64,000 bases of DNA, taken from NCBI GenBank assembly GCA_032718475.1, contig JAUCBJ010008100.1, forward strand, positions 1 through 64,000, in the 5' to 3' direction. The position numbers and the translations under genes were made by a program. The notes under the pieces were generated by a model. The model ran no database searches. It saw only the letters and a program-made list of their open reading frames with translations, and was not told where the DNA came from. The DNA comes from Nemertoderma westbladi (taxonomy: Eukaryota > Animalia > Xenacoelomorpha). This document shows, in pieces, positions 13,460 to 56,351 of this stretch (positions within the stretch are counted from its first letter, which is position 1; every line of letters starts with the position of its first letter).

Positions 13460-13751
13460 GATACAGTAGCCATCAATACGTTTTGCACTAACTCATTGAT
13501 GAATAGGCTAATGGTGCTTATTGGACTGCACTACTGGGGTGGCGGAAACAGGTAGTAAACTTCTAAGATAATTCATACATACATAATTCAAACAGGTAGT
13601 ACCACATTACTGCCATTTTTTGTGGCTGCTCTGGGGATTCTAACCTGACTTTGAATGGGTTTTATATATTTTTATTCTAAGTAATAAGTAATTATTTTTA
13701 ATATTAATAAAACTAATATTCTAGAATCAAGTATAATTAAATAATACTAAG

Positions 13752-15854
13752 ATGTCACAACCAAGTCATGATTCAGGCTATGGAACTCACTCAATCGTAG
13801 ATGTTTCTGCAAATAAAGAGACTAATGAATACAATAGTGGAACAGCTACTTCTGCTGTGGATAGCGGTGACCTTCTACCCAATGATGTAGGTGCAGGAGT
13901 CCATCCAAAAATTGCGCCAGCAAATCAACTATGGTCTACAGACCCGCTACAACCAGTGCAACTACATACCAAGGGAGCCAACACCTTAACAATACATGAT
14001 CTTTTCACAAAGATTTTGGAGAAATATGGAAACGAGCTGGCATTACGCGCAACAGGTCTGAACACAAAGATCTGGAGTTACAGTCTGTACTACGATACAT
14101 CCCGTCGAGCAGCCCGTAGTATAATCCATCTCGGAGTAGAGCCAGGAATGGGAGTTGGAATCATTGGATTTAACGCACCTCATTGGCTCTTTGCCAACAT
14201 TGGCGCTATATTTGCAGGGGGTATATCCGTAGGTTTCTACACAACAAACAATGAGGTTACCTGTCAGTTCATAGCCAAAGACAGCCGAACGCGACTCATA
14301 TTCGTAGACAGTGGGGTCCAACTCAAGAAGATACTCGCAATTAGAAACAATTTACCACAGTTAAATGCCATAATCATTTGGGACAAGAGTTATGATGTAT
14401 CCATGGAAACATCAGGGGTTTTCACTTGGGATACATTTATAGGTCTGAGTGAATATGTTGATGATGAGACTTTGAACAAACGAATAGCCAATCTACGTGT
14501 AAATATGTGTTGCTCGATTATCTACACATCTGGCATAACTGGGAATCCCAAAGGGGTCATGTTGAGTCATGATAATATCACATGGACAGTGAATGCTTTT
14601 ATCAGTGAATTTGGCATTCTCAATGATGCACAATATACTGTGGTCAGTTACCTGCCACTCAGCCACATTGCCGCACAGATGTTGGACATCTACATACCAC
14701 TCTCAGTGGCAGGGATTGTAGTCTTTGCGCAGCCAGATGCGCTGAAGCAGTCATTGGAAGAGACACTCCGTGAGGCAAGACCCACTCTATTTATGGGAGT
14801 TCCACATGTTTGGGAGAAAATCATGGGGGTGATGTTAGCAAAGGGTGCACAAGTTTCAGGATTAAAACAACAAGTGGCCAAGCGGGCCAAAACTATTGGT
14901 TTGCATTGCAATAAGGACAAACTAGCCGGGAAACACCCACCAATGAAGTTCAGAGTTGTTGAGAAACTGATTTTCCACAAAAACCGATATAATATGGGGC
15001 TGGATCGGTGCCGCTTGTTCATGTCAGGAGCAGCACCAATCTCACGTGATGTTATGGAGTACTTCCTCAGTATCAACATCCCAATCAATGAGATTTATGG
15101 TATGAGTGAGAGCACTGGGCCGCACTTCAAGTCCCAGTTTCCAGACACGCCACTAGGGAGTTGTGGACAGACATTCCAGGGTGCTGACACTACTCTACAT
15201 GTTGGGCCTGAAGGCAATGAACTCTGGCTCAAGGGGCGCAATATATTTATGGGCTACATAGGCCAGTCGGAGAAGACAAAAGAGGTACTTGATGAAGAGG
15301 GGTGGCTGCACACTGGGGATCTCGGAAGAGTCGATGAAAATCGATTCTACTACATAACTGGGAGAATCAAAGAGTTGATAATAACAGCTGGAGGGGAGAA
15401 CATCCCGCCGGTAATCATTGAGGAAAACATTAAGGATCAGCTCCCTTGCATATCCAATGTGTGTCTTATTGGAGACCAACGTAAATACTTAACTTGTTTA
15501 TTAACCCTTAAAGTGGAGGTTGATGAAGAAGGGGGACCTTCAGATGTTCTAACAATGCAGGTTAAACGCTGGTGTCAGGAGTTGGGAAGCCACGCCAAGA
15601 CTGTTGATGATGTCAGATCCGGTAGAGACATTAAGGTAAACAGGGCCATCGCTAAGGGGTTGTTTATCACCAACAAATGGGCTTCCTCTCAGGCTCAGAA
15701 GGTTCAGAAATACCGTGTTTTGGCTTGTGATTTCTCAGTGGAAGGAGGAGAACTCAGTCCTACTCTGAAACTTAAACGTCACTTCATTCATACTAAGTAT
15801 ATAGCTGTTATTGAATCTATGTACAGTGAAGATGACTTCACAAGTGAAACTTAA
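13752..15854 (+). CDS. ACSBG: Long-chain-fatty-acid--CoA ligase, ACSBG/bubblegum family, intronless (paralog 1)
   Basis: 700-aa ORF with IIYTSGITGNPKG, VSYLPLSHIAAQ, YGMSES, GWLHTGDLG, ITGRIKELIITAGGENIPPV and ELSPTLKLKR. Confidence 0.93.
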   Translation: MSQPSHDSGYGTHSIVDVSANKETNEYNSGTATSAVDSGDLLPNDVGAGVHPKIAPANQLWSTDPLQPVQLHTKGANTLTIHDLFTKILEKYGNELALRATGLNTKIWSYSLYYDTSRRAARSIIHLGVEPGMGVGIIGFNAPHWLFANIGAIFAGGISVGFYTTNNEVTCQFIAKDSRTRLIFVDSGVQLKKILAIRNNLPQLNAIIIWDKSYDVSMETSGVFTWDTFIGLSEYVDDETLNKRIANLRVNMCCSIIYTSGITGNPKGVMLSHDNITWTVNAFISEFGILNDAQYTVVSYLPLSHIAAQMLDIYIPLSVAGIVVFAQPDALKQSLEETLREARPTLFMGVPHVWEKIMGVMLAKGAQVSGLKQQVAKRAKTIGLHCNKDKLAGKHPPMKFRVVEKLIFHKNRYNMGLDRCRLFMSGAAPISRDVMEYFLSINIPINEIYGMSESTGPHFKSQFPDTPLGSCGQTFQGADTTLHVGPEGNELWLKGRNIFMGYIGQSEKTKEVLDEEGWLHTGDLGRVDENRFYYITGRIKELIITAGGENIPPVIIEENIKDQLPCISNVCLIGDQRKYLTCLLTLKVEVDEEGGPSDVLTMQVKRWCQELGSHAKTVDDVRSGRDIKVNRAIAKGLFITNKWASSQAQKVQKYRVLACDFSVEGGELSPTLKLKRHFIHTKYIAVIESMYSEDDFTSET

Positions 15855-21616: not shown

Positions 21617-22704
21617 TTTATTGGTAAGCAAGGTCTTCCATCTAGATCACACAGGGGGGAAGGTTTACATTCATTGAATAATGATATTAACCATGGCAAC
21701 TTTCTTGAATTCATAAAAGAGTTGGCTAAACACAACGATATTCTAAAGCGCCATGTTGACAAGTGTGTCAAGTATTCGACTCACAAAGCAAGAAAGGGTG
21801 GCTCTGAACATACAGTAAAAGGGCGGGGTCATTTCTTTCGTTTCTCAGTTCAGATACGTTTACAGCCATAGTCAATATCATAGATGTTCTTTTACGGCAG
21901 AAAATTGTTACTGATATCAAGGAGGCTGGTATATATGGATTGATGAGAGACAGTACTCAGGACATTACAACTAAAGATCAGTGCTGTATTGCAATAAGGT
22001 ATGTGGTATGTTCTACTGTTTATGAGAAAATGTTGGCTCTGGTTAATACGAGCTCTGACACCTCTTCACAAGGCCTCTTTAATGCACTTAATCAGGTTTG
22101 TGAGAAGTTTCAAATTCTCTTGAGCCAATGCATTGCAGATGCTTTTGATGGTGCCTCCAATATGAGTGCCGAGTACAATGGGCTACAAGCTAAACTGAAA
22201 GATGTATCTCCAAACCACATCCACACATGGTGCTATTCACATGTGTTGAACCTCGTGATCACCGACAGCTGTTCTTCTCTGGAATGTGTTTCATTCTTTG
22301 GGTTGTTGCAAGCAGTCTATGTGTTCTTCGCTGATAGTTACAAGCGTATGGCAGTTTGGGAGAAAACCTTGGAGCAACAGTTGGGAGAAGGATGCATGCA
22401 ACGATTAAAAAATCTTGGAAAAACCCACTGGCGAGCCAAAAACAATGCCACAGTGAAGATTTTTGGTACTTATCACTCTGCTGGTGATCAAAGTAGTACA
22501 AGCTTGTATCCTGCACTAGTATTATGTTTAGACGAAATTTCAAAATCTGATCATGTTAAAGCCATTCACCGATCAGAAGCGAAATCTTTGTGTGAAAACT
22601 TACTTAAATATGAGACTGTTATGGTGGCGTTTCTCTTTCTCAGGATTTTCATGTTCACGACACCATTATCTGATTACCTTCAATCGAGTGGTATGGATTA
22701 TGCC
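21617..22704 (+). pseudogene. hAT transposase (ZMYM1/DUF4371-like), part left of the LTR element insertion
   Basis: After a pyrimidine-AG acceptor: IGKQGLPSRSH...NHGNFLEF, DSTQDIT, FDGASNM, HTWCYSHVLNLV, THW, PLSDYLQSSGMDYA; frameshift near 21830. Confidence 0.9.
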
Positions 22705-23853
22705 TGTTCGCGCTTTTAGACCTTTAGCAGTTTAACCTGCCAATTTTAGGTGTCCTCTTGTTTATAAATCGACTTTAGCCTATAACAATTATTTAATGCA
22801 TATGAAGTAACATTAGCCGAAGCCAGTCTGTGCGCGATCATTCACCCACAGTTAAGGGAGACTGGATTCGGATGCTTTGAAGGGATTGCGGTGCAGACCT
22901 ACGGTATTATTCGATTGATCGTTACTATATAATCTCTGACAATATTATTCACTTTCGGGGAAATATTAACAGTTCCTTTAGGACGTGGCGCTTTAAGTAT
23001 AAAACAGAGTTATGACTTATACTAAACACAACGAGATGGCTACTGATTTTCGTAAATGGCGCATTCTTTAGGAGATGCTTTATTATCTGTCACACTGCTG
23101 CATACGACTTCACACTGCTGCACACTGATCTGCCGACCGTCACTGAATTTGATCATATATAATGAGGATAGCAACTGACACATGTAGGGATTATGAAATA
23201 GCATTTAATGCACACTAAAACCACTGTAATGTAAGTCGCAATTGCTACCGGTAACAGGTCCCTCTTACCTTCAGTAATCAAGAAGATTGGGGTTTTATGA
23301 TTATTTATCGATATTCTCCAAATATAACAACATATCCAACAACATATAACAATTAATAACCGACAGTAAACAGAAGTAAAATAATGCGGTGAAATCAGTT
23401 CAGCAGTTTGAGTTGGGTTGTGACCATTGCAATATGGACTGTTAATAGATTTACGTTCCTATAATCAAAGCCGTCTAATGTTTGGCTAAAGTCTGAAACT
23501 TACAGAAATTTCCAAGCCGATGTTCTGAGGCTCAGGAAAAGGTAAACAAAGACCGTAATGCATTGCGCGGTCTTCCGTAGGCTTCTGTCCAAGATAAAAT
23601 GAAAATCGCTCTGATTGGCTGAGCGAGCTGAATAAAGAGGTTCCACATCGACAGGAAATCAGCTGACAGATTTCGTCATCTGAACTACCATCCTTTAGAG
23701 TATTTGGCGTATTGCGGCATAAAATGGCTTGTTATGTCCGCTAAAACACCTACAGGGTACATTGCGGAGAAAATGGCTTGTTATGTCCGCTAAAACAACT
23801 AAACAGTTCATTGCGGAGAAAAATGACTGGTTATATCCGCAAAAGCTTTTACA
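22705..23853 (-). repeat. 3' LTR of the outer BEL element
   Basis: Direct repeat of 53215-55203 minus the MITE, about 8 substitutions by eye; preceded on the minus strand by PPT-like CTGGGAGCGG (23854-23863); three ~50-bp repeats at 23711-23843. Confidence 0.97.
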
Positions 23854-25528: not shown

Positions 25529-26728
25529 TGTAAAAGCTTTTGCTGAATTGTCCGGTTATTTTTCCTTATTTTTCCCGTAAAATACTCTGTAGTTGGTTTA
25601 CCAGGCATAAAAAGGCCGTGTCCTTGCTGTACTGGTGTTTTAGCGGACATAAAAGCTATTTCTTCTGTATTTGTACTTTAGAGGACATAATCCGTAATTC
25701 CGTGACGTAAAAGCTCGATACTCTTGAAAACAGTGTCGCTACCATGACGACGGCTAGCAGCTGATATTGCCACGTCGACGTTTCTTTGTTTCTTTGTTCT
25801 CTCGTTGTTCAGGTTGACCAATCAGAGCGTTTGTTGTCTCTGTGTTGGAGGTGTATACAGAAACTCAGTAGTTCAGTGTTATGTTTTTGCCCAGAGCCTA
25901 AGAACCGGCTTTTGGCACCTCCGTGTTTTCAGTTTTTAGTCTTACACTAGTAGGCTTAATTATAAGGACATATATCCGTTATCAAACTGATGTCTGATGT
26001 CTGATGTCTGCATACTGCAGTACTGCATACTGTGTAACACTGTGCATACTTTTATATTGTTATACTGCTATTTACTGTCAGTTCTTCATAATATGGTTGA
26101 TGAATTATTATATTTGGAATAACGACAAATAACCCCGAAAACCCAATATTCTTGATATACCGAAGGTAAGAGAGAAAGGTTACAGATAAATGATTGCGAC
26201 CTATGTTGAGTGGTTTGAAGTGAATCTAATGTTATTTGATAGACCCTACATGATTCGGTCCGTGTTCCTTTTATATGTGACTAAAATCAGTGAAGATCGG
26301 CAGATCAGTGTGCAGTATTGTGCAGCATTGTGTATGAGTGAGACTGATAACGAAGCATTTCCTAAAGAATGCGCCATATATGTGAATTCTAACTAAGCCA
26401 TATCGTTGTGAGTAGTTTAAGTCATAACTCTGTTTATATAGATAGAGCGCCACGTCCTAAAGGAACTGTTAATATTTCCCGAAGGTGAATAATATTGTCA
26501 GAGATTATATAATACTGTCAGTCGAATAATACATTAGGCTTACATAGCAATAAAATTAAGCCGTCGAACCCAATCTCCCGGGTATATCCAGCGGGTGAAT
26601 GATCGCGCACAGATTGGTTTCGACTAGTGTAGTGAATTAAATACTTGTCATAGACTAAAGGTGATTTATTATCTAGAAGACATCCTAATTTGGCGGGTTA
26701 AACTGCCAAAGGTCTGAAAGCGCGAACA
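25529..26728 (+). repeat. 5' LTR of the inner element (1200 bp)
   Basis: TGTAAAAGC...GCGCGAACA; differs from the 3' LTR by about 2 substitutions and one 7-bp CATACTG indel. Confidence 0.97.
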
Positions 26729-26739
26729 ATAACGGATAT
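26729..26739 (+). promoter_or_regulatory. Non-tRNA primer-binding site, complementary to LTR 25972-25982 (putative self-priming)
   Basis: ATAACGGATAT immediately after the LTR-terminal CA is the exact reverse complement of ATATCCGTTAT in the LTR; no TGG is present. Confidence 0.7.
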
Positions 26740-27089
26740 TTAGTCTGTATTGCAGTGTAGGCATTAAATACAGTTTAATATTGTTCTGGTAAGAACAATA
26801 ACGGATATTGCTTCTTTATTGCAGTAAGCAATAAAGTTGAAAGTACCGGTCAACCGGTAAACCTGAACAGTCCATCTGTAGGTCAGTAGGACCAACTGCC
26901 AGAACCGGTACTGCCGTATAAGTACATTAGTATTATTCGACTTGATTGTTGTATACCGGTAGGCTGTTTAAGAGATTAGGGACTGTACACCCCTTGTTTC
27001 TTTTGGAGCTTACTTATTTCTGTCAGTTTTATTTGTTAGTAGGCCAGTATTGAACAGAAGGCGTGTAAACCTGATCAGATTGTACAGAC

Positions 27090-27650
27090 GATTGTAGGCT
27101 GAGCTGTTGTCTGATTGCTGTTAAGTCTGAACGAATTGCAGTGTGTGTAGATCATCTGTCCGATTAAGTACGGTTAGGAAGTAGGGGCAGCGAATGCTGT
27201 AAGGTAAACCCCCAACTAAAGAATAAGTCGTACTACTGGGTTAGAACGCATACTCCCTAATCATTTCGGAGTCTGCATGTCCTGTAGTTTATTTAGGCTT
27301 GAGAGTAGTCTGCCATCGTTTAGTCTGTACTTTGTTTGTGTAAGTCTGTACGGGTAGCGTATAATTTTATTTAGATAATTTGTAGGCTGGATAATTGTCT
27401 GGCTGTTATTAGGTCTGAACGGATTGCAGTGTGTGTAGATCACTTGTCCGATTAAGTACGGTTAGGAAGTAGGGGCAGCGAACGCTGTAAGGTAAACCCC
27501 TAACTAAAGAATAAGTCGCACTACTGGGTTAGAGCGCATACTCCCTAATCATTTCGGAGTCTGCATGTCCTGTAGTTTGTTTAGGCTTGATAGTAGTCTG
27601 TCAGTGTTCGGTCTGCATTTTGTTTGAGTAGTTTGTACGCGTAGCGTAAT
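27090..27650 (+). repeat. Tandem duplication of about 288 bp in the inner element 5' leader
   Basis: TTGCAGTGTGTGTAGATCA...GATTAAGTACGGTTAGGAAGTAGGGGCAGCGAA at about 27135 and 27424; single copy in the outer element (about 52650-52930). Confidence 0.9.
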
Positions 27651-28970
27651 ATTTATTATTCAGAGTTTATGCGATTATTCGCAACATTCATATTCCCCAA
27701 GTTTGTTCCTACAGTAATTGTGTTTGTTATACATACCGTTATAGTTAAATTAACCCCGGTACTACACGGGCTGCTTGGCGTAGGTAAAGACTGGTGATTT
27801 TGTGCACCGGTCACTCCAGCAGATGCCATGGTTCTTTTAGCTGTTCAAGTATAGGTAACTACTGATTATCTGTTGTACAAGTACTCGTACCTAATTTAGG
27901 GTTTAGTGTACAGTGCTTTCCGAAAGTAATTATTGTAGGCATTATATTTGTGTTGTAAAGTGGTTGATAGGCACCTTCGATTAGCTCTATTAACTTCTAG
28001 GTAGGAACACTCCGTGATACATAACGTAGAACCTATAGCGATATGGCCATAGGTCGTCAGGCGGTGGTATTTTCCTATCTAGACAGCGCAGTGTATTTAA
28101 TACTACGTATTATTTCAAATACCGCAGTACCCTGTCCGTTGTAATAACCAGATTTCTAACCCTTTGTTAGGCTGGTTTGTAGACTTCTTGTAAAATTACC
28201 CTAAAAATTCGTATTTTGTGTTTTTGTAAATTTTTATGTTTATTTAGAGATTGTAATCCCAACCCGAATTGTACGTAATTTGTAGTATTAAGTAACTTAG
28301 GTAAATTAGAATTATTTGTTTTAGTGTCCTATAAGTAACACTTCACTGAAAGCGCACCGCTTTGTGTAGTGATTACTCCCCAGAAATAATAACATTTATT
28401 TCAACATTGACAAAACCCGTTAAACGGGTATATATATATTATAAATCAACTCAAACGATTTATAAATAGTAGGCCTGCCATAAAACCATTAGGTCTCAAT
28501 ATCAGTTGGACTACTGTTCAAATAACGGTAATAAAGTAAGTAAAGTAACAAAGTAACCCTAAAGTTCAGAAATTCAATTATTTAAAATAATTGATATACC
28601 GGTATTTACGATAGGCCTATTATCTTTATTTCTGTAAATTTAGGCTGAAATTATACCGGTACTTGTAATTAATTCTAGTCCAGAATTATATATACTACAA
28701 ATTGTAAGCTGTATACCGGTATTCCCGATAGGCCTATTATATATTTATATATATTTGTGCTAAAATTATACCGGTATTCTGAGATAAACCTAGTCTGTAA
28801 TAATACTTATATATACTATAAGCATACCGGTATTCTAATATATTATATATATATCACGCTACACTGAGTAGCAGTATCGGTAATTAATTACTAGGCTAGC
28901 AGTTAATACTGAATTACTAGACTTGCTTAGACTGTAATATAGCAGTAGGCATTCAACTGTACAAACAAAA

Positions 28971-31900
28971 ATGTCTGACACAAAACGGGCACTGTCAGAT
29001 AGTCTTTTGGAAGGTGTTAGAATCAGCCTTAGACTTGGACAGGGTCTTGAAAGGAAGATGGCAGAGGCAATGGCAACAGCAGAAGCGAAAAGAAAGGCGG
29101 CAGAGGCAATGGCAACAGTAGAAGCGGAAAGAAAGATAGAGACACCTGTACTCCCAGAACCTGCCTATAAATTCCCTTTGTACAGTACTAAACTACCTGT
29201 GCCCAGTAGGACTGTTCCCGAGTCCGAACCCATCCTGGACGCCGAGCGAGATATTAAGAATTTATCGCCCGTCGTCTCTCGCTCGCCCGCTACAACGTTG
29301 GCGACTCCCGCTTCGGCGGTTGAGTGGGTAGCTGAGGGACGACGGGAGATGCGTCTCCTGCTCGAGCAGCTGAGGGAACACTGTTTGTGCTCCTCTCAGC
29401 AGGTCCGGGAAATGGAAGAGACTGTTCAGCAGCTCAAGGGAACAGTAAGGGAAAGTAGGTTAGAGTTGCAAAAGGTGCAGCAAAGTATCGCGTTAGAATG
29501 CGATAAATTAGTGAACATACAAAGGGGTATAACACCACCCCCTGTAACAATGTGTCAACCCGTTAGGTCTGAAGTATTTCATGCGCAAGGTGTGGAGCCT
29601 ACACGCATCTATACTGCTAGTGAAGTAGAAACTCCTATAGTAAACCCTATTCAGGGTAATTATAAACCTGTTGATAATAATATTCCATATAGACCTGATC
29701 ATAATCCGAGAAATTTATATACCGATAATTCTATATTCAATTATACGATGGCTCAAGAAAGTTTTACGCGTCAAATGGCTAGAACCGAAGCCCGGCAAGC
29801 GGTAAAGGTGGGAGAGATCGTCAAGTTCAATGGAGATGAGATGAAATGGTTACCTTTTAATGAATATTATAAAGATAACATACAGAACTCTGTACTATCT
29901 AACGGAGAGAAACTTAGATTCCTCATCGAATGTTTGGAAGGACCTCCCAAGTCAATGGCGTTAAAATTTATTGGACATCCAGATGGATTAAGACAAGTTT
30001 GGGATACACTAAACATCAGGTATGGTAATAGGACTAACATAGCTAGGTATTTATATGCGAAATTAATGGCGCCCCGAAAGTTTCTTAGCAGCGGGATTAT
30101 AGAGTTTTCCGATGAGATTCAGGAGATCTGTAGACAACTAGATTGGTTAGGTAAGTCTCATGAATACCAGAATTCTATGGTTGTAGGAGCCTTAGCATCT
30201 ACTTTGCCCAAGGGTGGAGTAGGTACACGCTGGGACAAGAAGGTGTTATATATGATGGAACAACAACAACGAGACCCTACCATGGCTGATCTCATGTCAT
30301 TCCTGGATAGCGAGGTGAAATTACAGCTCATAAAGCAGTCCAGAGAGAAGACAGCGGAAAGTAAGGTAAGTGAGAAACCCGTTTCTAGGAGAAGGGTAAC
30401 ACCAGTATGTTATACCGACGACGGTGAAAGCCAAACTTCTCAAGGAGAGGACAGCGGGAAAGACACTGACAGATCTTATTATGTCAATAAAATGCCTAAA
30501 GATCAGGTAAGTAAATCCGAGTCTCGACCCAATGACAGAAGGGAACCGGTACAAAAAACCCTTCCTACGTCTCCTAAAAGAATTCAGGTGAGAAAGCCCG
30601 AGGAAAGAACAAGTGTGCACCACATAGCACAGGTTAAAGTAAGTAACATCAAGCCGAAATGTGTGCTGTGCTACGGGCCCCACCGTTTAAATGTGTGTGA
30701 TAAATTCCTGAGGAAATCACTTGAGGATAGACGTGAAGTCATGTGGGATAAGCGGTTGTGTTATATTTGCCTCAGACGAGGACACCAACGGCGAACCTGT
30801 AACTCCGACGCAAGGTGTGCAAAGTGCGGCGCAAAACATCATATCTTGTTGCACATGGAATTCGAACGAAACAGCCCGAGTCAGGTAAGTGAGTCCGAAC
30901 TACATGTCCAATTCAGTGATGTGAACGACACTGATCAATCTGAGATGGAAGGATTCTATACGGACGAGTTCTCCGACCAAAACGAATCCTGTTACCTAAT
31001 AAACACCACCGCAGTGTATCGAGCACTCGTGTATGAGAAAGACACAGACAGCGACCTTACCTTAACTACTTCCGATCAACAACCATCTTGGAAAGCGCCA
31101 ACTTCCAATATAGGAATCCGAGAATTTCCTGTAGTCCAGTTACGGGTCCACGGACCTCAGAAGAGCTATATAGTGAACGCCCTCCTGGACTCCGGTAGCA
31201 CAGGAACATTCATCGATAGGGAACTAGCCGAAGTCATCTTTGCTGGACAACCCAAGTTCCGAACCAAGCTAAACCTGTCAGGGATCATGCAGGTTTGGAA
31301 TTCTACTGTAGCTGCCGACTATTATATATGTGAGTTGTCCACCCCCCAAGACGAACTAGGAGAACATAGCATAAGGTCAGTGAAAATGGTGGCTATAAAG
31401 AACTTCGCTACTACTCAAGCAGACCTTTATAATTGGGACGAGGATGAGAGCATCCAACATCTTAACATACCTCGATTCCAGACTGATTATCCTGGAGTGC
31501 AAATACTCATCGGCCAAAACGCGCATGAGGCGCTGGAGACATTAGAGAAACGGCCTGCTCAACCGCAGCCACTACAGACCTATGCGGTAAGAACTAGAGT
31601 AGGTTGGTACCTTACTGGACCTTCCCGTAGAACGCTCAGGGAAAGAATGCTTCAAGATCGCGTCTGCCAGGTGAGTGAATGGGAAGATGATACTAGTGAG
31701 GGAGACGACCCAACTGAGGGAACACCACACTCCTCAGATAATGACAATCTTAGCTCCAATGTAGATCAATGGAAATATTGCCCCAAGAAGTTTAATCCAA
31801 CGGACATCGCTTCCAGAGGAGCAACTCCTCAAGAACTGACAGATACTACAGACCGATTAGGTGAACCCGACTTCCTGAGTAAGGAGAATGAATGGCCTCC

Positions 31901-32399
31901 CCATCTTACTCCGACTGAGATTATACCAGCCAAGGGAGCGGAGAAAGTCGAACCTGAAACCCGGACGTGTGGATCGGAGTTATTTGAACCCGGGATAGAT
32001 CTGTCGGTATTACATGTTGCCAGGGACGACGCTGTGGATCTGGGCCTCCCCACCGCGAGTGGATCCTTCATGAAGATCAGAGAGAGCGATTGGAGCTCTG
32101 GAACATCAGACGTCTCGCAGGGACTCTCACCTCTCCTGCAGAGAGCGACGGACCACTATAGCTCCTGGAATCGGCTTTGTGACGCCGTCATATACTTTGA
32201 GCGATGTTTCTATCGTCACTATTCCAGGACGAAGAGGAAACCTGGAATTGTATTCAGGATGCAGCGACTCAATCACCCAGTCGGTCGTTTGTGTTTATCG
32301 GAAGGGAATGGAGGACTCTCCGGAAACTGTGGAAGGCAAGATTCTCTTCCCACGACCACCTCCCTAATCCTTCAAACATCTAGGGACTCCATAACGTAA
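28971..32399 (+). CDS. Gag-protease polyprotein of the non-autonomous BEL element, fused in frame to RNase H-region and integrase C-terminal remnants
   Basis: Uninterrupted 1142 aa: FNGDEMKWLPF (DUF1759-like), CVLCYGPHRLNVC/CYICLRRGHQRRTC/CAKCGAKHHILLH, ALLDSGSTGTF, QWKYCPKKFNPTDIASRG, HPVGRLCL; no YxDD and no integrase core. Confidence 0.9.
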   Translation: MSDTKRALSDSLLEGVRISLRLGQGLERKMAEAMATAEAKRKAAEAMATVEAERKIETPVLPEPAYKFPLYSTKLPVPSRTVPESEPILDAERDIKNLSPVVSRSPATTLATPASAVEWVAEGRREMRLLLEQLREHCLCSSQQVREMEETVQQLKGTVRESRLELQKVQQSIALECDKLVNIQRGITPPPVTMCQPVRSEVFHAQGVEPTRIYTASEVETPIVNPIQGNYKPVDNNIPYRPDHNPRNLYTDNSIFNYTMAQESFTRQMARTEARQAVKVGEIVKFNGDEMKWLPFNEYYKDNIQNSVLSNGEKLRFLIECLEGPPKSMALKFIGHPDGLRQVWDTLNIRYGNRTNIARYLYAKLMAPRKFLSSGIIEFSDEIQEICRQLDWLGKSHEYQNSMVVGALASTLPKGGVGTRWDKKVLYMMEQQQRDPTMADLMSFLDSEVKLQLIKQSREKTAESKVSEKPVSRRRVTPVCYTDDGESQTSQGEDSGKDTDRSYYVNKMPKDQVSKSESRPNDRREPVQKTLPTSPKRIQVRKPEERTSVHHIAQVKVSNIKPKCVLCYGPHRLNVCDKFLRKSLEDRREVMWDKRLCYICLRRGHQRRTCNSDARCAKCGAKHHILLHMEFERNSPSQVSESELHVQFSDVNDTDQSEMEGFYTDEFSDQNESCYLINTTAVYRALVYEKDTDSDLTLTTSDQQPSWKAPTSNIGIREFPVVQLRVHGPQKSYIVNALLDSGSTGTFIDRELAEVIFAGQPKFRTKLNLSGIMQVWNSTVAADYYICELSTPQDELGEHSIRSVKMVAIKNFATTQADLYNWDEDESIQHLNIPRFQTDYPGVQILIGQNAHEALETLEKRPAQPQPLQTYAVRTRVGWYLTGPSRRTLRERMLQDRVCQVSEWEDDTSEGDDPTEGTPHSSDNDNLSSNVDQWKYCPKKFNPTDIASRGATPQELTDTTDRLGEPDFLSKENEWPPHLTPTEIIPAKGAEKVEPETRTCGSELFEPGIDLSVLHVARDDAVDLGLPTASGSFMKIRESDWSSGTSDVSQGLSPLLQRATDHYSSWNRLCDAVIYFERCFYRHYSRTKRKPGIVFRMQRLNHPVGRLCLSEGNGGLSGNCGRQDSLPTTTSLILQTSRDSIT

Positions 32400-34052
32400 C
32401 AACATATGGAGTGGGTGTGTGACTCTATTATTTTATATTATTTTATTATTTTTATATTTCTGTATGTATTACTATGTAATTTTATTATAATCGTTTTCTT
32501 TAATTTTATTCAGTAGAATGTTATTTTAGCGATTATTTAGTAGATTAGTGCAATATATATTCGCGTTTATTACTTAATTACGTATATATTATATTTAATG
32601 CGACGGCAAGAAATAATTCTTTTCCTCTTTCCTTACTGCCCGTATCATATTATAAATACGTGACTACAGTAAGATGAAATGTCCGTACTTATTAAAGTAC
32701 AATAAAGCCACTACTATATTCAAGTATTATTGGTAGGCAGAGTATTAGGAATGCAAAGTTCAGATCCTCGTGTCTCGGCTAAACCAAGCTCTGGGTAGAC
32801 CTTGGAAACGACTTGCCTCTTCACACTGACATTGCTTCGTGCGATATTGCTCTCATACCGTATATTAAATAATACATATAGTAGCGTGATGTCCCTTTAA
32901 CAGTAGCGTATAACGCAAAATAAATCTGTTAAACCCTTTGACCATCTGTAATTCTAGTCGATTAAGATATCGTGGCACCCACCGATATACTTGAAAGACA
33001 AATTATAGAATCAGTGGTTAACGTCCCCAGACAAGTTCTGGAATAAATCGGTGCCCATCTCAAATATTAATTATTTAATATTTGCAAATCTAATAAGTCA
33101 AAATCTGTAAAATTCAGATCCTTCAACAATTCTAGTCAATTAAGATATCGTAGCATTTACCGATATTCTTAAAAAAGACAATTGTCATAGAATTAAGGAT
33201 CTTGTGTCCCTAGACATGTTCTAGAATCAAAATATGTCCATTTAATTATCAAATAATAAAATTTCAGGGAATAAATTTAAATTCATGCCTTTTAATGAAT
33301 TTAATAAATTGCCATTTTTACGCAATTTATAAAGTTCCCAAAATTCCATTAATTAATAGATCAAGGGAGCGGAGATTTATCTTATTATGCATATGAGTGT
33401 GCGAAAGTCTCCCAAACATAGTCAATAGCCGATAAAATTCATAAAGTCATGTATAAAACAGAACATTGACTATTAAAGAATACTATTAAATAACATCCCA
33501 GATCTGTATGCATTGGAATCACCCTAATTCTACCGCTAGCTTTGCATAATGTCACCATAGCAACAACCACGCTAGAATTAGAATTGAGTTAAAAGAACAA
33601 TAGAAAGCTTGTCCCATTGAATAGCATAGGGAATAAATAGCGCACTGCTAGTATCCAAGGATACATAATAATACAGTGACATTCTGGAAGGCATTGACTA
33701 ACGGACAAATGGCCCGAATGTGTGTAGTTGTGACCAGTTGTGTGGTATTTGTGAGTTTATAGGTGAATGTTACTGCTAAAGTGTGTTTACAGTAGCTAGT
33801 CGCAATCGTAAAAGTAACCTAACTCTCCAAGGAAAACCTGAAGTACATCTAAGCCTTTGGGACGGACAGTTGAGTGACTTGTGCCGGTTGTCGTTGTCAT
33901 TGTGCGGCTACGTCGTTGGCGAAAGTGCAGCGGCGACGACACATCGGCGCTGAGGATCTCGTACTGTCCGGGGGTTGATTGGGGTAGGCAGCGACGCCCG
34001 CTCGCCTAAATGTGGACTCATTATAATATGGATAAACTCATATATAGCAGAT

Positions 34053-35543
34053 ATGACGGAGTTGATAGAAGATGGTCTTGGTATCGGGGAGCGATATACT
34101 CTACTTTTACAAGCGTTTGTTGATAGCTTAATATGCGGCGACGTTAGTCCAACTGCTGCGGATGACGATGGTCGTTATATCGAACCGCCAATGTCCCAAG
34201 AGCAGCTCACGCGTGAGTTGGACTATAGAAAATTCGCTGCTTGATATACGCAGCGTAATGGTACGTATATGGACTTCTTAACTACTGGTCATCCTATCGA
34301 CCTACACGATACGAACGATATAGACACCAAAGGGAAATGGTTTATTTAAATATCATACCCAGCGGAAGCGGAACGATAAATTGAGACTCGAACACGAAAA
34401 TTCTATTCGAAACCGACTTGAAAGTGCAGATGTCGAAATGCCGGATAAACGCAGCGACTCCACCAAATACCTGGAATTCTTGAGAGAAACCTATCTCGAT
34501 ATTACCAGTCAACAGAATCTAGAAACTCGATATCCTCAAGGTATACATCATGACCGCATGGTAGAACTCAAACGGCTCTATTCCACTATGATGTATCTTA
34601 CCGCTGATCGATCGCTACCTGTTGTACCGGATAGCTTCGAACGGATGGAGGAATATTGTAAGCTGGAGAAAGATCACTCGCGTTTCCCCTACAAGACGTA
34701 CGTTTTTGGGTATTATTACGGTAAATGCCCTAGACCCAGCCAATAAACGGAAAGACATAAACATCCACGGAAACGTTGTGTTAAACACAGTTGTGTTCGT
34801 TATATTTACTGGAGTTTCGAGCGAAACTTGTTTGACGTATCACCTATGCTCACTCGGCTCTAACGATCCTAGAGTAAACCTACGATCAGAGTCCCGGAAT
34901 ACTCGGTCAAACCTCCTCATTCCTTAGTTGGACCTCAGACCTGCGATCCTGGTGGTGTCGCGGATCCTCGCGGACTGTATTCACTGTTCAAAGATCTAGT
35001 GCTACCCTAACAATTAATCGGTAACACTCCGACAGTGATTTCTAGCTAGCCGCCCATCTTACCTAGCCGGATTGTGACGCGGACACCTAATATCACTATC
35101 CAACCGTATGGTCGTTCCTGTTTAACGCGATACAACCCCTCATCAAGGTGAAGGAGAGCGTTGTACGAAACGAGTTAAACGCTATTCTATAAAGATCAAA
35201 AAGAAACCTGCGTTTGTTCAGATAAACGTAAGTTATAACAGTAAGTCCAATCGATAAACGAATTGGCCTTATCTCAATTCGATTGGGAAATCCAGAATCT
35301 CTAAGAAGTTATCGAACTTGGACGATCCTATTCTCTGCGAGAGTTTTTGGATGAACGTATCCAGCTACGAGCGGAGGAAAATCAGCTCGAGGAGAAGCAT
35401 ATCGAAACGGCGGATACCCCGACCATAATCCTACACCTTCTGATGCAATCATATTGCACCCTTCACCCAGGATTTATAGCCCTCCTAGTAAAGTGGCTCC
35501 CCCAAAGAGAAAAGGACTCTTGCTAGCCTCAAGAAACTGCGTA
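34053..35543 (+). pseudogene. Deleted and decayed ORF3 of the inner element
   Basis: Homologous to outer 39698-38150, then jumps near 35405 to the last ~45 codons (PSDAI.LHPSPR); many stops; exonuclease and knuckles absent. Confidence 0.85.
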
Positions 35544-35646
35544 AACACCGTCCGCGCAAAGAAACTAACTGTTTAGAGTATCTTTATGTTTTAGAAACTG
35601 TGATTTTTATATTTTATAGACTGAAAATCCCATTTTCTGGGAGCGG

Positions 35647-36853
35647 TGTAAAAGCTTTTGCTGAATTGTCCGGTTATTTTTCCTTATTTTTCCCGTAAAA
35701 TACTCTGTAGTTGGTTTACCAGGCATAAAAAGGCCGTGTCCTTGCTGTACTGGTGTTTTAGCAGACATAAAAGCTATTTCTTCTGTATTTGTACTTTAGA
35801 GGACATAATCCGTAATTCCGTGACGTAAAAGCTCGATACTCTTGAAAACAGTGTCGCTACCATGATGACGGCTAGCAGCTGATATTGCCACGTCGACGTT
35901 TCTTTGTTTCTTTGTTCTCTCGTTGTTCAGGTTGACCAATCAGAGCGTTTGTTGTCTCTGTGTTGGAGGTGTATACAGAAACTCAGTAGTTCAGTGTTAT
36001 GTTTTTGCCCAGAGCCTAAGAACCGGCTTTTGGCACCTCCGTGTTTTCAGTTTTTAGTCTTACACTAGTAGGCTTAATTATAAGGACATATATCCGTTAT
36101 CAAACTGATGTCTGATGTCTGATGTCTGCATACTGCATACTGCAGTACTGCATACTGTGTAACACTGTGCATACTTTTATATTGTTATACTGCTATTTAC
36201 TGTCAGTTCTTCATAATATGGTTGATGAATTATTATATTTGGAATAACGACAAATAACCCCGAAAACCCAATATTCTTGATATACCGAAGGTAAGAGAGA
36301 AAGGTTACAGATAAATGATTGCGACCTATGTTGAGTGGTTTGAAGTGAATCTAATGTTATTTGATAGACCCTACATGATTCGGTCCGTGTTCCTTTTATA
36401 TGTGACTAAAATCAGTGAAGATCGGCAGATCAGTGTGCAGTATTGTGCAGCATTGTGTATGAGTGAGACTGATAACGAAGCATTTCCTAAAGAATGCGCC
36501 ATATATGTGAATTCTAACTAAGCCATATCGTTGTGAGTAGTTTAAGTCATAACTCTGTTTATATAGATAGAGCGCCACGTCCTAAAGGAACTGTTAATAT
36601 TTCCCGAAGGTGAATAATATTGTCAGAGATTATATAATACTGTCAGTCGAATAATACATTAGGCTTACATAGCAATAAAATTAAGCCGTCGAACCCAATC
36701 TCCCGGGTATATCCAGCGGGTGAATGATCGCGCACAGATTGGTTTCGACTAGTGTAGTGAATTAAATACTTGTCATAGACTAAAGGTGATTTATTATCTA
36801 GAAGACATCCTAATTTGGCGGGTTAAACTGCCAAAGGTCTGAAAGCGCGAACA
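35647..36853 (+). repeat. 3' LTR of the inner element (1207 bp)
   Basis: Near-identical to 25529-26728; preceded by PPT-like CTGGGAGCGG. Confidence 0.97.
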
Positions 36854-41514: not shown

Positions 41515-43035
41515 TTACGTTGGGGAGTCCCTAGATGTTTGTTGGATTAGGGAGGTGGTCGTGGGAAGAGTATCTTGCCTTCCATAGTTTCCGGACAGTT
41601 CTCTGTCTCTTTCCAGTAAACATAAACGACCAACTGGGCGATTGAGCTGCTGTGTTTCGAACACAATTCCAGGTTTCTTAAAGTTACGTCGCATGACGAC
41701 GAGTTCTACCGATCGCACCAAACCATCATCTGAGATATGAGTCTCGATGATACGACCTGTCTGCCACCGCTTACGTGGAAGATCTGATTCCACAATAAGG
41801 ACCATGTCTCCGGCGCTGACGTTTTCTTGCTGCGCAAACCACTTGGTTCGAAGTTGTAGCGTAGGCAGATAATGTTTTTCGAAATGGTCAGCGAAACGAC
41901 GGGATAATAACTGCATAAGTTGCCAAGTTTGTCGGCAGTATTCGTCTCCGTCCGTGATTTCCGATCGTGGGAGCATGGCTATAGGTTTCTTCAGTAGGAA
42001 ATGCGCGGGTGTTAGCGCTTCCAGGGAGTCGGGACTCGATGAGACTGGCATAAGCGGTCTTTCGTTAAGATCGGCGGCGATTTCTTCCATTAACGTCCGC
42101 AAAAGTTCGTCGGTGAGATACGCGCGGCATGGCACTATAAAGTGAAATGCGGTCTTCACGCTTCTTATTATTCTCTCCCAACTTCCTCCCCACCAAGGGG
42201 CATCGGCGGCATTGAATGTCCAGCTAGATGCTGTTACCCTTAGCTGATCGTCCACCTGTCTTTGGTTCCAATCTCTAACATAAGCCTTGATCTCATTATT
42301 GGCGCCAATGAAGTTCGTCCCCTTATCAGATCTCATCGTGTTGATAGTTTCAAAGCGAGCGATCTGTCGGCATAGACTCAGTATGAAGCTGTTGGTAGAT
42401 AGATCGTTCACCATATCTAAATGGATCGCTCTAAAAGTCATACAGACAAAGATGACACACCATCGCTTGACTATAGTCCTGGCACGATATACTTCAATAG
42501 GGCCAAATAAATCCACACCGGTATTAGTAAAGGGTGGTTCATAGAAGCTTACTCGTTCCCTAGGTAATTCTGCCTCTCGCTGTGTTAAAGGCCTACTGAA
42601 TGCTTTCCTACAGGGTATACAGTTCCTAAGAACTTGGTTCAGAGCTCTACGGGGTTTATGAAAATAATAGCGAGTTCGAATTTCGCTAAGAACTCGTTCT
42701 CTACCAGCATGGTAAAGCTTACTGTGAACATCTACCATCATCTTGATTTGTATTTCAAGATTTCTAATGAGTATGGGAAACTTAGTGTCAAAGGATAATG
42801 GAGCATTAGTTAGTCTCCCTCCAACGCGTATTAACCCATCTATCATTGTGCTAGAGAAACGATCCCTTAAGCGCATCTGTGGATTTCTCAAAAACAGGAA
42901 ATACTTATCGGAATCTTCATAGCATTGCAGGAGTCTCAGTATCTGCTTATTGGTTTCTTCATGCTCCTGGTAACTGATCTTCTCCATCAGAAAACCTATC
43001 TGATATTTTATATTTGGGAAGATCTTTAATAGCAT
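41515..43035 (-). pseudogene. Integrase region of outer BEL pol
   Basis: RVGGRL, H-x4-H...CIPC zinc finger, TGVDLFGP, RAIHLD, SDKGTNF, APWWGGSWERIIRSVK, LNERPL, LTPAHFL. Confidence 0.95.
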
Positions 43036-45061
43036 GGACCTGCGCAGATGTCAGTGGAGCGGTATCACTAGCGATCTTCGTCCTGGAGTAGTGATGATGA
43101 AAACATCGCTTTAAATACACGACGACCTTACAAAGCCGATTCCAGGAGCTATAGTGGTTTATCACTCTCTGCAAGAGAGGTGAGAGTCCCTGCGAGACGT
43201 CTGGTGTTCCAGATTTCCAGTCTCTCTCTCTGATTTCCACAACAGACTTATTTGTGGCGGGGGAGTTTGGATCCAAAGCGTCGTCTCCGGAAATGTGTAA
43301 TACAGACAGATCTATCACGGGTTTAAATAACTTCGATTTACTCGTCCGGGTTTTAGGTTTGACTTTCTCCGCTCCCTTGGCTTGTCTAATCTCAGCCGTG
43401 GTAAGATGAGGAGGCCATTCATCTTCTTCTTTACTTAGGAAGTCGGGTCCACCTAACCAGTCCAGAGTATCTATCAGTTCTTGAGGAGTTGCTCCTCTGG
43501 AGGTGATGTCGGCTGGATTAATCGTCCCAGGGCAATGTCTCCATTGATCTACACTAGTGCGACTAAGTATAATGGCTACTCTGTTGGTAACGAAGACGCT
43601 GAACTGACAGACTTCATTGGTTATATACTCCAAAACAAGTAAAGCATCAGTCCAATAGACAGTTTTCTCCAGTGGATAGTCGATCTGTTCTATTACATTC
43701 CGGCCGATGGCTGTAGCGTATAGAGCCGCATTTAACTCCGCTCGAGGAACTCGTAGTTTGTTGTTTATCAAGGCCTTAGAGGTAACCAAGGCAACCTTAA
43801 TTCCATCCGGAGTTTCAACCCTCAGGTAGGCTACTATACCTATTCCCATGTCACTGGCGTCTCCAAACACATGGAGTTGATAGGAATACGTGGGGAGAAT
43901 GTGACCAAAATAAGAACGGGAAATCGTAAAGTTCTCGATGGATGGCAGAGAATCTTCCCATTTCATCCACTTCTTTAGAAGTTCTCCCTTAAGTGGATCG
44001 TCCCACGAGTGGTTTTCAAGCCATATTTGTTAAACTAAACTCTGAGCAACCAATATAACTGGGCTAATAAATCCCAATGGATCGAAATAAGTGCTCAGGA
44101 TACTTAGACAAATCCGTTTTGTTCGAACTGGATTATCTCGCTGCTTTAGCTGGAAAAACAGGATATCTCTCTCCGTGTCCCATTTCAAACCAAGTGTCTT
44201 GGTTTCTGGAAAATCGTCCTTGATTAGGTCTAGATCTTTAACTCCTCGGTCTTCTACCGGGATCGATTCCAGAAACTCACGGGAGTTACTTGTGAATTTA
44301 GTTAGTCGAAAACCACCGCGTTTCAAGCACTCTACCGTTCCCTTGGTAACATCAATGGCTTCTTCCACCGATGGGAGGGACTTTAAATTATCGTCCATGT
44401 ATATATCCCGTTTGATGTTGTCGATAACCGCTTTAGAGAAGGCGTCTCGGTTGTCATCAGCAGTGGTGCGCACTACTGAACAGGCGTTCGAGGGGCTCGA
44501 GATGATCCCGAAAGCCTGGATGGTCATCCAGTACTCCACAGGTTTTTGGTTGAGGTCTCCTTCAGGCCACCACAGAAATTGTAGGCTGTCTCGATCCCTA
44601 TCCAGCGCCTTAACTTGTAAGAACATGCCTTCTATATCCGAGGTGAAGGCGATCGAATATTGCTGTAATCTTAAGAGTATTCCCAACAAGGATTGGAGTA
44701 AGTTGGGTCCCGGCAACAACTTGGAGTTAAGGGATTGGCCCATGTAAAGGGCAGAGCCGTCAAATACTACCTGAACTTCGTTGGGTTTACCGGGTTTGGG
44801 AACGTAATGATGAGTTAGATAATACGTTCTCTCAGTTATGGGTGTTTCTTCCGGTACTCGCTCCGCGTATCCCCTATCGATGAATTTCTTCAGCTGGGTC
44901 TTGTACATCTCTTTAGCTGAAGCATTTGCCGTGAGGCGTCGATGTAGTTGCGCGATTCTCTTCTCCGCCAAGGGTCGGTTATTTATAAAGTTGGGTTGTC
45001 GCTTTCGGAATGGCAGACCAATCTCATACCTCCCTTGATTTTTAAGGAAACGTGTAGTCAT
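42959..45061 (-). pseudogene. RT and Pao-type RNase H region of outer BEL pol
   Basis: VVFDGSA, GPNLL, DIEGMFLQV, FGIISSP, YMDD, KTLGLKW, FDPLG, LHVFGDAS, PRAEL, YWTD, NPADITSRG; stop at 44030. Confidence 0.95.
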
Positions 45062-45130
45062 TTCCTGGATCTGCTTGGCTCTTTCCTCTTCGACCGATAC
45101 TGCTTTGTCGTAGGAATTAGGCTCTACAGC

Positions 45131-48100
45131 TTATTGAGTAAAGAATCGTACGGCGTGTTCGTCGCGAATCTTAGCATTATGTCGATCTATCACCTCATTT
45201 AGCTCATCGTTGTAGTTGAGTTGTCCGCCATGATGGATGAGATGGCAAAGGTGCACTTGGTTTCTCCAAGCTTCACTTTCAGTGAGGAGGTCTATTGTAT
45301 TTTCCTCGTCAAATAGTTGGGTAATATCGTCGTTATCTGAGGAGTATGGTGTTCCCTCAGGTGTGATTTCTCCCTCACTGATTTCTTCTTCCCATTCACT
45401 CACCTGATGGATTTGTTCAGTGGGTAATCTTTCCATGAGCGTTCTACGGGAAGGTCCAGTGAAGTACCAACCTACTCTAGTTCTTCCCGCATAGGTTTGC
45501 AATGGTTGCGGTCGAGCAGGTCTTTTCTCTAATGTCTCAAGCGCCTCATGCGCATTTTGGCCGATTAATATTTGCACCCCTGGGTAGTCGGTGTTGAATC
45601 TAGGTATTTCATGCTGCTGGGTGAAATCATCTTCATCCCAGTTATAAGGTTCCACTTGGCTGGTAGCAAAGTTCTTTATCGCCACCATTTTGACTGACCT
45701 TATGCTGTGTTCTCCTAGTTTGTCTTGGGGAGTGGACAACGCACCTACATAGTAGTCTGTAGCTACTGTAGATTTCCAAACCTGCATAATTCCTGAAAGG
45801 TTTAATTTAGTTCGGAACTTGGATTATCCTGCAAAGATGTCTTCGGCTAGTTCTTTATCGATGAATGTTCCTGTGCTGCCGGAGTCCAGGAGTGCATTGA
45901 CTATAAAACTCTTACTTAATCCATGGACTCTTAGCTGAACTACGGGGAATTCCCGGATTCCGATGTTGGAAGTTGGCGCTTTCCAAGATGGTTGTCGGTC
46001 AGGAATAACCGGGTGTGCTTCATTATCGGTTTCAGTCTCATACGTAAGCGCTCGATATACCGCGGTGTTTATCAGATAACAGGATTCGTTTTCATCGGAG
46101 AATTCGTCCGTGTAAAATCCTTCCATCTCAGTGTCGTTCACATCACTGAATTGGACATGTAGTTCGGACTCACTTACCTGACTCGGGCTGTTTCTTTCAA
46201 ATTCTGTGTGCAGCAAGATATGATGTTTCGCGCCGCACTTAGCACACCTCGCATCGGAGTAACAGGTTCGCCGTTGGTGTCCTTGTCTGAGACAATTATA
46301 GCACAACCGCTTATCCCACATGACATCACGTCTATCTTTTAGGGATTTCTTTAATAATTCATCACACACACTTAAACGATGGGGCCCATCGCACAATGCA
46401 CATTTTGGTTTGATGTTACTTACTTTACCTTGGGTAGTGTTGTGCACACTCGTTCTTTCCTCGGGCTTTCTTCCATGAACTCTCTTAGGAGACGTAGGAG
46501 GAGTTTTTGTTACCTGTTCTCTCCTGTCACTGGTTCGAGACTTAAATTTACTTACATCTTTAGGTGCTTTGTTGACATAGTAAGATCTTTCGGTGTCTTT
46601 CCCGCTGTTCTCCTCTTGAGAGGTCTGGCTTTCGCCGTCGTCTCTATAACATACTGGTGTTACCTTTCTCATAGAAACGGGTTTTTCACTTACCTTATTT
46701 TCCGGTGTCTTCTCTCGGGACTGCTTTAGGAGCTGTAATTTTACCTCTCCATCTAAGAATGACATGAGATCAGCCATGGTAGGGTCTCTTTGTTGTTGTT
46801 CCATCATATATAGAACTCTTTTGTCCCAACGAGTACCTACTCCACCCTTTGGCAAGGTAGATGCTACAGCTCCAATAACCATAGAACTCTGATATTCATG
46901 AGACTTACCTAGCCAATCTAATTGTCTACAGATCTCCTGTATCTCATTGGAAAATTCTATACTCCTGCTGCTAAGAAACTTTCGGGGCGCTACCAATTTC
47001 GCATACAAATACCTAGCTATGTTATTCCTATTACCATACCTGATGTTTAGTGTATCCCAAACTTGTCTTAATCCATCTGGATGTCCAATAAACTTTAACG
47101 CCATTAACTTGGGAGATCCTTCCAAGCACTCGATGTGGAATCTAAGCTTCTCTCCATTAGATAGCCAGAGTTCTGTTTGTTATCTTTATAATATTCATTA
47201 AAAGGTAACCATTTCATCTCATCTCCGTTGAACTTGACGATCTCTCCCACCTTTACCGCTTGACGGGCTTCGGTTCTAGCCATTTGACGCGTAAAACTTT
47301 CTTGGGCCATCGTATTATTTAATATCGAGTTTTCGGTATATAAATTTCTCGGATTATGATCAGTTCTATATGGAATATCATTATCAACAGGTTTATAATT
47401 ACCCTTAATAGGGTTTACTATAGGAGTTTCTACTTCACTAGCAGTATAGATGCGTGTAGGCTCCGCACCTTGCGCATGAAATACTTCAGACCTAACAGGT
47501 TGACACATTGTTACAGGGGGTGGTGGTATACCCCTTTGTATATTTACTAATTTATCGCGTTCTAATGCGATACTCTGCTGCACTTCTTGCAACTCTAACC
47601 TACCTTCTCTTACTGTTCCCTTTAACTGTTGAACAGTCCCTTCCATCTCTCGGACCTGCTGGGAGAAATGCAAGCGCTGTTCCTCCAATTGTCCGAGCAG
47701 GAGATCCATCCCCCGCCGTCCCTCATCCACCCACTCGACCGCCGAAGCGGGAGCCGCCAACATAGTAGCGGGTAGACGAGGGACGACGGGCGATAAATCG
47801 TTGATGTCTCGCTCGGCGTCCAAGACTGGGACTGATTCTAAGGCTATTCTACTGGGGACAGGTAGTTTAGTACTGTGCAAAGGGAATTTAGAGTTAGGTT
47901 CTGGAAGTACAGGTGTCTCTATCACAGAAGGGGTGGCTTCGAGAACAGGCCTAATTATTTCAGGCTCATCTACTATAGTAGGGAGTCTTTCTACTCTAAT
48001 AATTTGGTCTAATTTGGTAATAATTTGTGGGTTCTGTACTACCTAAATCTGCACTAGCTAGTTGCCTTCTCACAGCTGGGGGCAAATTAGGTAATTTCTG

Positions 48101-49716: not shown

Positions 49717-50205
49717 GTTTGATTGTACAGTTGAATGCCTACTACTATAACTACAGTTAAAGCAAGTCTAGTAATTCAGTATCAACTATAAGCCTCGTAA
49801 TTAATTACCGATACTGTTACTCAGTGTAACGTGATATATATAGAATATATTAGAATACCGGTATACACCTATAGTATATATATAAGTATTATTACAGACT
49901 AGGGTTTGTCACAGAATACCGGTATATAATTTCAGCATAAATTTATAGAAATAAATACAATAAGCCTATCGCAAATACCGGTATACAGCATACACTTATA
50001 GTATGTATATAAGTACGATTATAGACTAGGATTAATTACAAAATACCGGTATATATTTTTATCTTAAATTTATAGAAATAAATATAATAAGCCTATTATA
50101 AATACCGGTAATGTCAATTATTTTAGAATAACTGAATTTCTGAATTTTAGGGTTACTTTTCTTTACTTTATTACTGTTATTAAGCAGTAGTCCAACCGAT
50201 ATTAA

Positions 50206-53203: not shown

Positions 53204-53213
53204 AAATCTATTA
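53204..53213 (-). promoter_or_regulatory. Non-tRNA primer-binding site of the outer element, complementary to LTR 54793-54802
   Basis: Element-sense TAATAGATTT, 1 nt after the LTR end, pairs with element-sense AAATCTATTA in the LTR. Confidence 0.7.
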
Positions 53214-56310: not shown

Positions 56311-56351
56311 TAACTAAATCGAAACTCCGCGTTAAAAAGTGTAAATAATAT

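Follow-up and report, generated by a model that had tools for sequence, protein, structure and literature searches.

The window, by which we mean the whole 64-kb stretch of DNA analysed here, contains two LTR elements of one lineage, nested and in opposite orientations (Table 1). Their LTRs are 78% alike. Both elements have the TG..CA LTR ends and the 5-bp target duplications typical of BEL/Pao elements, the duplication being ATAGG on both flanks of the inner element and GGCAT for the outer one. The small number of differences between the two LTRs of each element indicates that both are young insertions. Once its nested insertions are subtracted, the outer element measures about 18.7 kb. It is inserted in a hAT-type transposase gene (DUF4371), which it splits into 21808-22719 and 55366-55899 (plus strand), and it has itself been a target for other elements. 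The sequence interrupting its 5′ LTR is a non-autonomous DNA element with inverted ends of about 30 nt and an AATT duplication, presumably Sola-like to judge from its target pattern. A further insertion, in the outer leader region (about 50204-51781), is flanked by TTAA, ends in CCC..GGG and contains internal repeats of 163 nt, an end and target pattern that we take to be piggyBac-like.

Apart from these elements, the window holds two uninterrupted frames of about 700 codons each for an ACSBG-like acyl-CoA ligase (13737-15854 and 61101-63203, plus strand). They are 88% alike in DNA and belong to a larger local duplication; one such frame is 41-51% identical to its best 120 protein matches, and those of the matches that are named are all animal. 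Tandem arrays of 21/24-nt and 36-nt units are found at 368-1350 and 56300-57800.

Table 1. Coordinates of the two elements and of their predicted features (positions in the window)
Feature	Position	Strand	Remarks
Inner element	25529-36853	+	11,325 nt
Inner element, 5′ LTR	25529-26728	+	TG..CA; 2 substitutions and 7 gap columns relative to the 3′ LTR
Inner LTR site, candidate self-primer	25972-25982	+	also at 36090-36100 in the 3′ LTR
Predicted hairpin near the LTR end	26689-26711	+	retained in the outer element, with two changes of the G-U type
Inner primer-binding site, putative	26729-26739	+	11/11 complementary to 25972-25982; directly after the 5′ LTR
Inner primer site, second copy	26798-26808	+	69-nt duplication
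Predicted 9-bp hairpin after the second primer site	26814-26836	+	the outer element has the same stem, with another loop
Inner gag-protease frame fused to pol remnants	28938-32399	+	DUF1759
Inner element, 3′ LTR	35647-36853	+	ends at the position preceding the first primer-site copy
Outer element	55203-22705	−	two LTRs and nested insertions
Outer element, 5′ LTR	53215-55203	−	carries an insertion of 840 nt at about 53301-54136
Outer LTR site, candidate self-primer	54793-54802	−	repeated in the 3′ LTR, from 23452 downwards
Outer primer-binding site, putative	53204-53213	−	10/10 complementary to 54802-54793; nt 2-11 after the 5′ LTR
Outer gag-pol	41515-49192	−	in-frame stops and frame breaks; Pfam matches and motifs
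Outer element, 3′ LTR	22705-23853	−	8 substitutions relative to the 5′ LTR

The coding content of the outer element follows the order gag, protease (DSGS), reverse transcriptase (RT; YMDD), RNase H (DAS, E, D, D) and integrase, with Pfam matches to DUF1759, Peptidase_A17, Integrase_H2C2 and DUF5641. This domain set and its order, as predicted from the broken frames, mark the element as BEL/Pao. Moreover, no Pfam match to a chromodomain was obtained in these elements, and their proteins are of the BEL/Pao and not of the Ty3/gypsy type. The closest integrase-region proteins, among the best 120 of 510 matches, are at most 41% identical and come from fish, cnidarians, crustaceans and others; no named reference element of a BEL/Pao clade is among the matches listed. 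The inner element has kept gag and protease, and RT, RNase H and most of the integrase are deleted, so it was presumably copied in trans. Both elements carry long extra frames 3′ of the integrase (39624-37093 and 25555-23961 on the minus strand, 33086-35410 on the plus strand); these gave no Pfam match and no usable match in the Atlas, and one of them bears several Cys/His clusters.

The described BEL/Pao elements (Tas, Sinbad, Suzu, roo and others) share with the two elements the gag-PR-RT-RH-IN arrangement, DUF1759, Peptidase_A17 and DUF5641, the YxDD and DAS motifs, and TG..CA LTRs of up to 1.2 kb. According to the ICTV account of the Belpaoviridae, members measure 4.2-10 kb and are primed by a host tRNA, through a site of 18 nt that pairs with the 3′ end of tRNA-Arg or tRNA-Gly, and their replication is poorly understood (PMC8742986). 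The elements studied here differ from this description in the lack of a tRNA site and in their size of 11.3 kb and about 18.7 kb, the outer one being nearly twice the described maximum.

Indeed, TGG is absent from the 20 nt that follow the 5′ LTR in both elements, as the earlier note on this DNA had claimed, and the tRNA 3′-end site described for BEL/Pao elements is missing. That note had reported, at the same place, perfect complements of 11 nt (inner) and 10 nt (outer) to a site within the element's own LTR, and its coordinates and letters are all right. The two LTR sites occupy homologous columns of the alignment between inner and outer LTRs. They differ at paired positions 2, 6 and 7, and the alignment confirmed for each of these three changes a matching change in the primer site. 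A fourth difference, at position 11 of the LTR site, has no such counterpart, which limits the outer helix to 10 pairs. In the outer element a single unpaired base separates the primer site from the LTR end. The end of the helix thus lies 0-1 nt from the terminal CA of the LTR in both elements, a geometry that agrees with the proposal of a primer whose 3′ end abuts the LTR end. In the inner element, a 69-nt duplication (26729-26868) spans the primer site and the hairpin that follows it, and its two copies have diverged. The duplicated form was found in one high-depth public contig, and other contigs are devoid of the duplication.

Several controls bear on the significance of this pairing. When the LTR was shuffled with its dinucleotides preserved, a perfect complement of the observed length beginning 0-3 nt after the LTR was obtained in 47 of 20,000 shuffles for the inner element and in 276 of 20,000 for the outer one. 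A complement of the same length occurred at 3 of 2,197 internal control positions in the inner element and at 18 of 4,002 in the outer one. When the partners were swapped, each primer site being matched with the LTR of the other element, only 5-6 nt paired; the duplex energies, calculated at −12.0 kcal/mol (inner) and −7.7 kcal/mol (outer) for the cognate pairs, were then −2.4 and −2.6 kcal/mol. The cognate duplex of the outer element is nevertheless a weak one, a point against self-priming. Within each LTR, the LTR site is the best partner of the primer site. Elsewhere inside each element, other stretches pair with the primer site equally well or slightly better when G-U pairs are allowed.

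Furthermore, we compared all helices of at least 7 bp that are common to both elements and join LTR columns to internal columns, in an alignment comprising 1,269 columns of the LTR and 7,819 of the interior, the latter from seven of the 11 homologous blocks (blocks 31760-32235, 32237-32453, 35214-35410 and 35410-35779 being left out). Among the 43 helices recovered, the one formed by the primer site is the longest (10 bp). Ranked by double-sided changes, the top two are this helix taken with each of the two inner copies of the primer site, at 10 bp with three such changes and 8 bp with two, and the remaining 41 helices have none or one. The LTRs show 241 substitutions in 1,080 columns, a background divergence of 22%, and the chance of three exact mirrors together with seven unchanged columns is 1.1e-4, by a crude estimate that treats sites as independent and with a covariation drawn from two elements only. 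We conclude that the predicted fold-back pairing signature at the primer site of this BEL/Pao lineage is real and statistically strong.

The position of the RNA start is less clearly marked. Both LTR sites begin on the A of an initiator-like YANWYY motif, which occurs 7 times in 251 nt and 6 times in 261 nt, and both elements have a CCAAT box some 150-165 nt upstream of the site. No TATAWAWR was present in the 250 nt scanned. Two rival initiator-like motifs are conserved in both elements, about 41 nt upstream and about 12 nt downstream of the site, and the upstream one has the full YYANWYY/TCAG form (25929 and 54846). In addition, a TATA-like sequence, TATA(A/G)G, is conserved 11 nt upstream of the site; if it were a TATA box, the LTR site would fall outside the RNA 5′ end. 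The self-priming reading of the earlier note stands as to the absence of a 3′-end tRNA site, the covarying complementarity and the geometry, but the transcription starts that it placed at 25972 and 54802 have to compete with two other conserved candidates within 55 nt.

In the LTRs of both elements a strong splice donor, AG/GTAAG, lies in conserved form 5′ of the primer site (26164-26170 on the plus strand, 23270-23264 on the minus strand) and could yield a spliced RNA for the 3′ frames, which would lack the primer site. We also considered a primer made by splicing. The best junction-spanning complements are 10 nt in the inner element, mostly made up of the same site, and 11 nt in the outer element (donor 23667, acceptor 22933). 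The inner and outer junctions do not correspond in position, and the site is sufficient without splicing, so this candidate was rejected.

The RNA around the primer site is predicted to be structured. The hairpin near the LTR end has a z-score of −3.4 in both elements, for hand-picked windows in two sequences that differ by one-sided changes only. The 9-bp hairpin after the primer site reaches −3.1 after inner copy 2 and −3.5 in the outer element, again for hand-picked windows, and the hairpin following inner copy 1 is not significant (z −1.2). The predicted hairpins with z-scores of −3.1 to −3.5 were equalled in 1-2 of 200 shuffles. As to the long-range helix between LTR site and primer site, its central pair has a probability of 0.74-1.0 in six of the 12 inner folds and of at most 0.08 in the other six, and with both copies in the RNA the prediction leans towards copy 2 or towards neither of them. 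The inner 3′ LTR ends where copy 1 begins, which suggests that copy 1 was the one used at the last jump. In the outer element, an RNA starting at the site gives the helix with a probability of about 0.9 and in the minimum-energy fold, and an RNA starting 42 nt upstream gives a probability of 0. The modelled folding of this helix is unstable and varies with the ends that are chosen for the RNA. In both elements, folding of the duplex carries the pairing on, with interruptions, past the 5′ side of the LTR site; the leader bases engaged by this extension are also predicted to form a stable local hairpin.

Public sequence data give a view of the variation within the family. Part of the inner LTR and leader is contained in six of the seven public runs listed, none of the six being recorded as RNA. 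The contigs of four runs over 25800-26950 reveal a large and diverse family, and among 40 of the 152 variants of this interval none falls in the LTR site or in the primer site. Over 26680-26845, two studies (1,559 and 500 contigs) gave 10 variants at a frequency of at least 1%, one in the 11-nt primer site and nine in the next 9 nt. Past base 11 the depth drops to about one tenth, as the inner duplication is skipped by many contigs, and these nine variants are thus partly an alignment effect; the sharp variant edge after base 11 of the primer site fits the putative helix. The variant within the site, A to T at position 8, represents 7% and 6% of the summed depth (16 and 9 contigs in the two studies) and, to judge from its letters, mismatches both LTR sites of the window unless the copies concerned mirror it at 25975. 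Among 12 of the 59 loose ends, two single contigs carry more site variants, at positions 6 and 8 in one and at positions 1, 6 and 8 in the other, the change at position 6 being the one carried by the outer element.

Thus at least five primer-site types occur in the lineage, two in the window and three in the public contigs, a diversity that sits badly with a single tRNA primer. None of the primer-site variants listed starts with TGG. The family appears to be abundant and recently mobile. A search for related loci returned nine metagenome loci with a best-segment identity of 36-55%, none of them with an LTR pair, and none in the viral contigs or prokaryote genomes searched; a 19-nt match in one viral contig had no further similarity and was taken as chance.

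Self-priming has been proven only for fission-yeast elements of the Tf1 type, and some Ty3/gypsy and plant Ty1/copia lineages are predicted to use it as well. In Tf1, the RNA's initial 11 bases anneal to the primer site, and the cut made by RNase H falls between bases 11 and 12 (PMC7175516). Self-priming is further proposed for Tj1 of S. japonicus (PMC4600332) and predicted for the plant Tcn1 and TAR (Houba, Osr-1; Ty1/copia) lineages (PMC6317226). Like the elements described here, Tf1/Tf2 of Schizosaccharomyces pombe, Tj1, the Tf1/sushi elements and Tcn1 (Ty3/gypsy) have a primer site of about 11 nt complementary to their own LTR and no tRNA site. A U5 stem-loop is reported to be needed in Tf1, and a hairpin is predicted at a like place in our elements. 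The differences from the Tf1 group are also clear: the proteins are of the BEL/Pao and not of the Ty3/gypsy type, the loop closed by the helix would measure about 750 nt, within an LTR of 1.2 kb, and the start and the cut are here proposals. The elements likely work like Tf1, but their sequences place them outside the Tf1/sushi group. The TAR lineage of plant Ty1/copia elements, for which self-priming is likewise predicted from complementarity alone, offers the same level of evidence as here; it belongs to another superfamily and lives in plant hosts.

Within BEL/Pao, Cer7 of C. elegans uses a self-encoded tRNA-like primer, CerP1, which is a separate RNA. Cer7 and the elements studied here would thus both be BEL/Pao elements with a primer of their own (here a proposed one), although no tRNA gene and no known Rfam family was found in either of our elements. 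The literature search returned no match for the Cer7/CerP1 primer. Nor did it return a self-priming BEL/Pao element, in line with the earlier note, whose author knew of none; subscription papers and Repbase lay outside the scope of this search, and they may hold an earlier mention. The words 'PBS', 'primer' and 'tRNA' are absent from the main text of a survey of BEL/Pao elements in animal genomes (PMC3118150), and no self-priming BEL/Pao element is named in the accessible parts of PMC3601003, PMC554778, PMC5443660, PMC5445492 and PMC9873768.

How, then, are these elements primed? Our preferred explanation, to which we would give a probability of roughly 0.6 on the basis of sequence comparison, is that both BEL/Pao elements prime as Tf1 does, using the 10-11 bases at the start of their own RNA and not a tRNA. 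Self-priming of one sort or another we regard as distinctly probable. The RNA would start at or very near 25972 and 54802, and its 5′ end would fold back over the loop onto the primer site, between the two hairpins. RNase H, whose motifs are present in the outer pol and which would have to be supplied in trans to the inner element, would then cut after base 10 or 11, and RT would extend the new primer 3′ end into the LTR end. In the general scheme given in PMC7175516, plus-strand synthesis ends in a primer-site sequence copied from the primer. Applied to the present elements, plus-strand synthesis would copy the primer into the new primer site, and a change in the LTR site would be passed on without a second mutation. 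A change carried over by replication in this way would explain why as many as three of the 10 pairs are altered on both sides, none of them to G-U, when the background divergence is 22%.

Self-priming might also proceed from a place other than the very 5′ end, if the RNA starts about 40 nt upstream and provides a longer 5′ piece, or if the 3′ copy of the site, or the partner RNA of a dimer, supplies the primer. We hold this to be unlikely. The conserved YYANWYY/TCAG motif and the TATA-like motif upstream of the site speak in its favour, as do the duplex folds that extend 5′ of the site in both elements and the inner folds which, starting upstream, still form the helix. On the other hand, the outer fold starting upstream loses the helix, the leader bases used by the extension have a stable local hairpin as an alternative, and in both elements the perfect complementarity goes no further than the initiator-like A. 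Moreover, neither AATAAA nor ATTAAA is found just before the LTR site, and the sole polyadenylation-type hexamer at matching places in both LTRs is an ATTAAA about 90 nt before the LTR end.

A further explanation would give the helix a structural role, in packaging, as a dimer or translation switch, or as a cover closing the site, with some external RNA priming at or near it. What the covariation shows is indeed pairing and not priming; much structure is predicted in the leader, and the duplex is short and forms in the models according to the ends chosen. Yet a fixed external primer should reset the site at each cycle, which is difficult to reconcile with at least five site types, and a structural helix usually changes slowly through G-U pairs, whereas here both bases have changed in three of 10 pairs and no G-U occurs. 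The helix also stands exactly at the LTR end in both elements, and we consider a purely structural role improbable. That the complementarity is due to chance, to priming by an internal tRNA fragment or to a palindromic DNA motif repeated in the element and read as its complement seems to us very improbable indeed. The inner LTR site is partly palindromic, the inner pair being 8/11 identical in direct orientation, and includes TAACGG, which we take to be a Myb-like motif. This reading fails for the outer element, where the pair is 3/11 identical in direct orientation and 10/11 in inverted orientation and has no Myb-like motif, which removes a repeated palindrome as the cause. Priming by half-tRNAs does exist in Ty1/copia lineages, according to PMC6317226, but a tRNA fragment would not explain the mirrored changes in the LTR, and chance is opposed by the shuffle, position and shared-helix controls.

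Priming of the Tf1 type with the 5′ end of the element's own RNA is thus the reading that we retain. A broader and quite unlikely version of self-priming would be that this abundant and oversized animal BEL/Pao lineage dropped tRNA priming on its own and by a route unlike that of Tf1, with a primer cut inside the RNA or taken from the 3′ repeat copy, a genome closed into a loop, and a primer site evolving freely as a copy of the LTR site. For BEL/Pao elements in general, tRNA priming has been described by assumption. A self-priming BEL/Pao element, if true, would extend tRNA-free priming to a third LTR superfamily and would bear on the question of whether tRNA or fold-back priming came first. 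It may also free these elements from control by tRNA fragments, and it would explain why annotation that requires a tRNA site misses elements of this kind.
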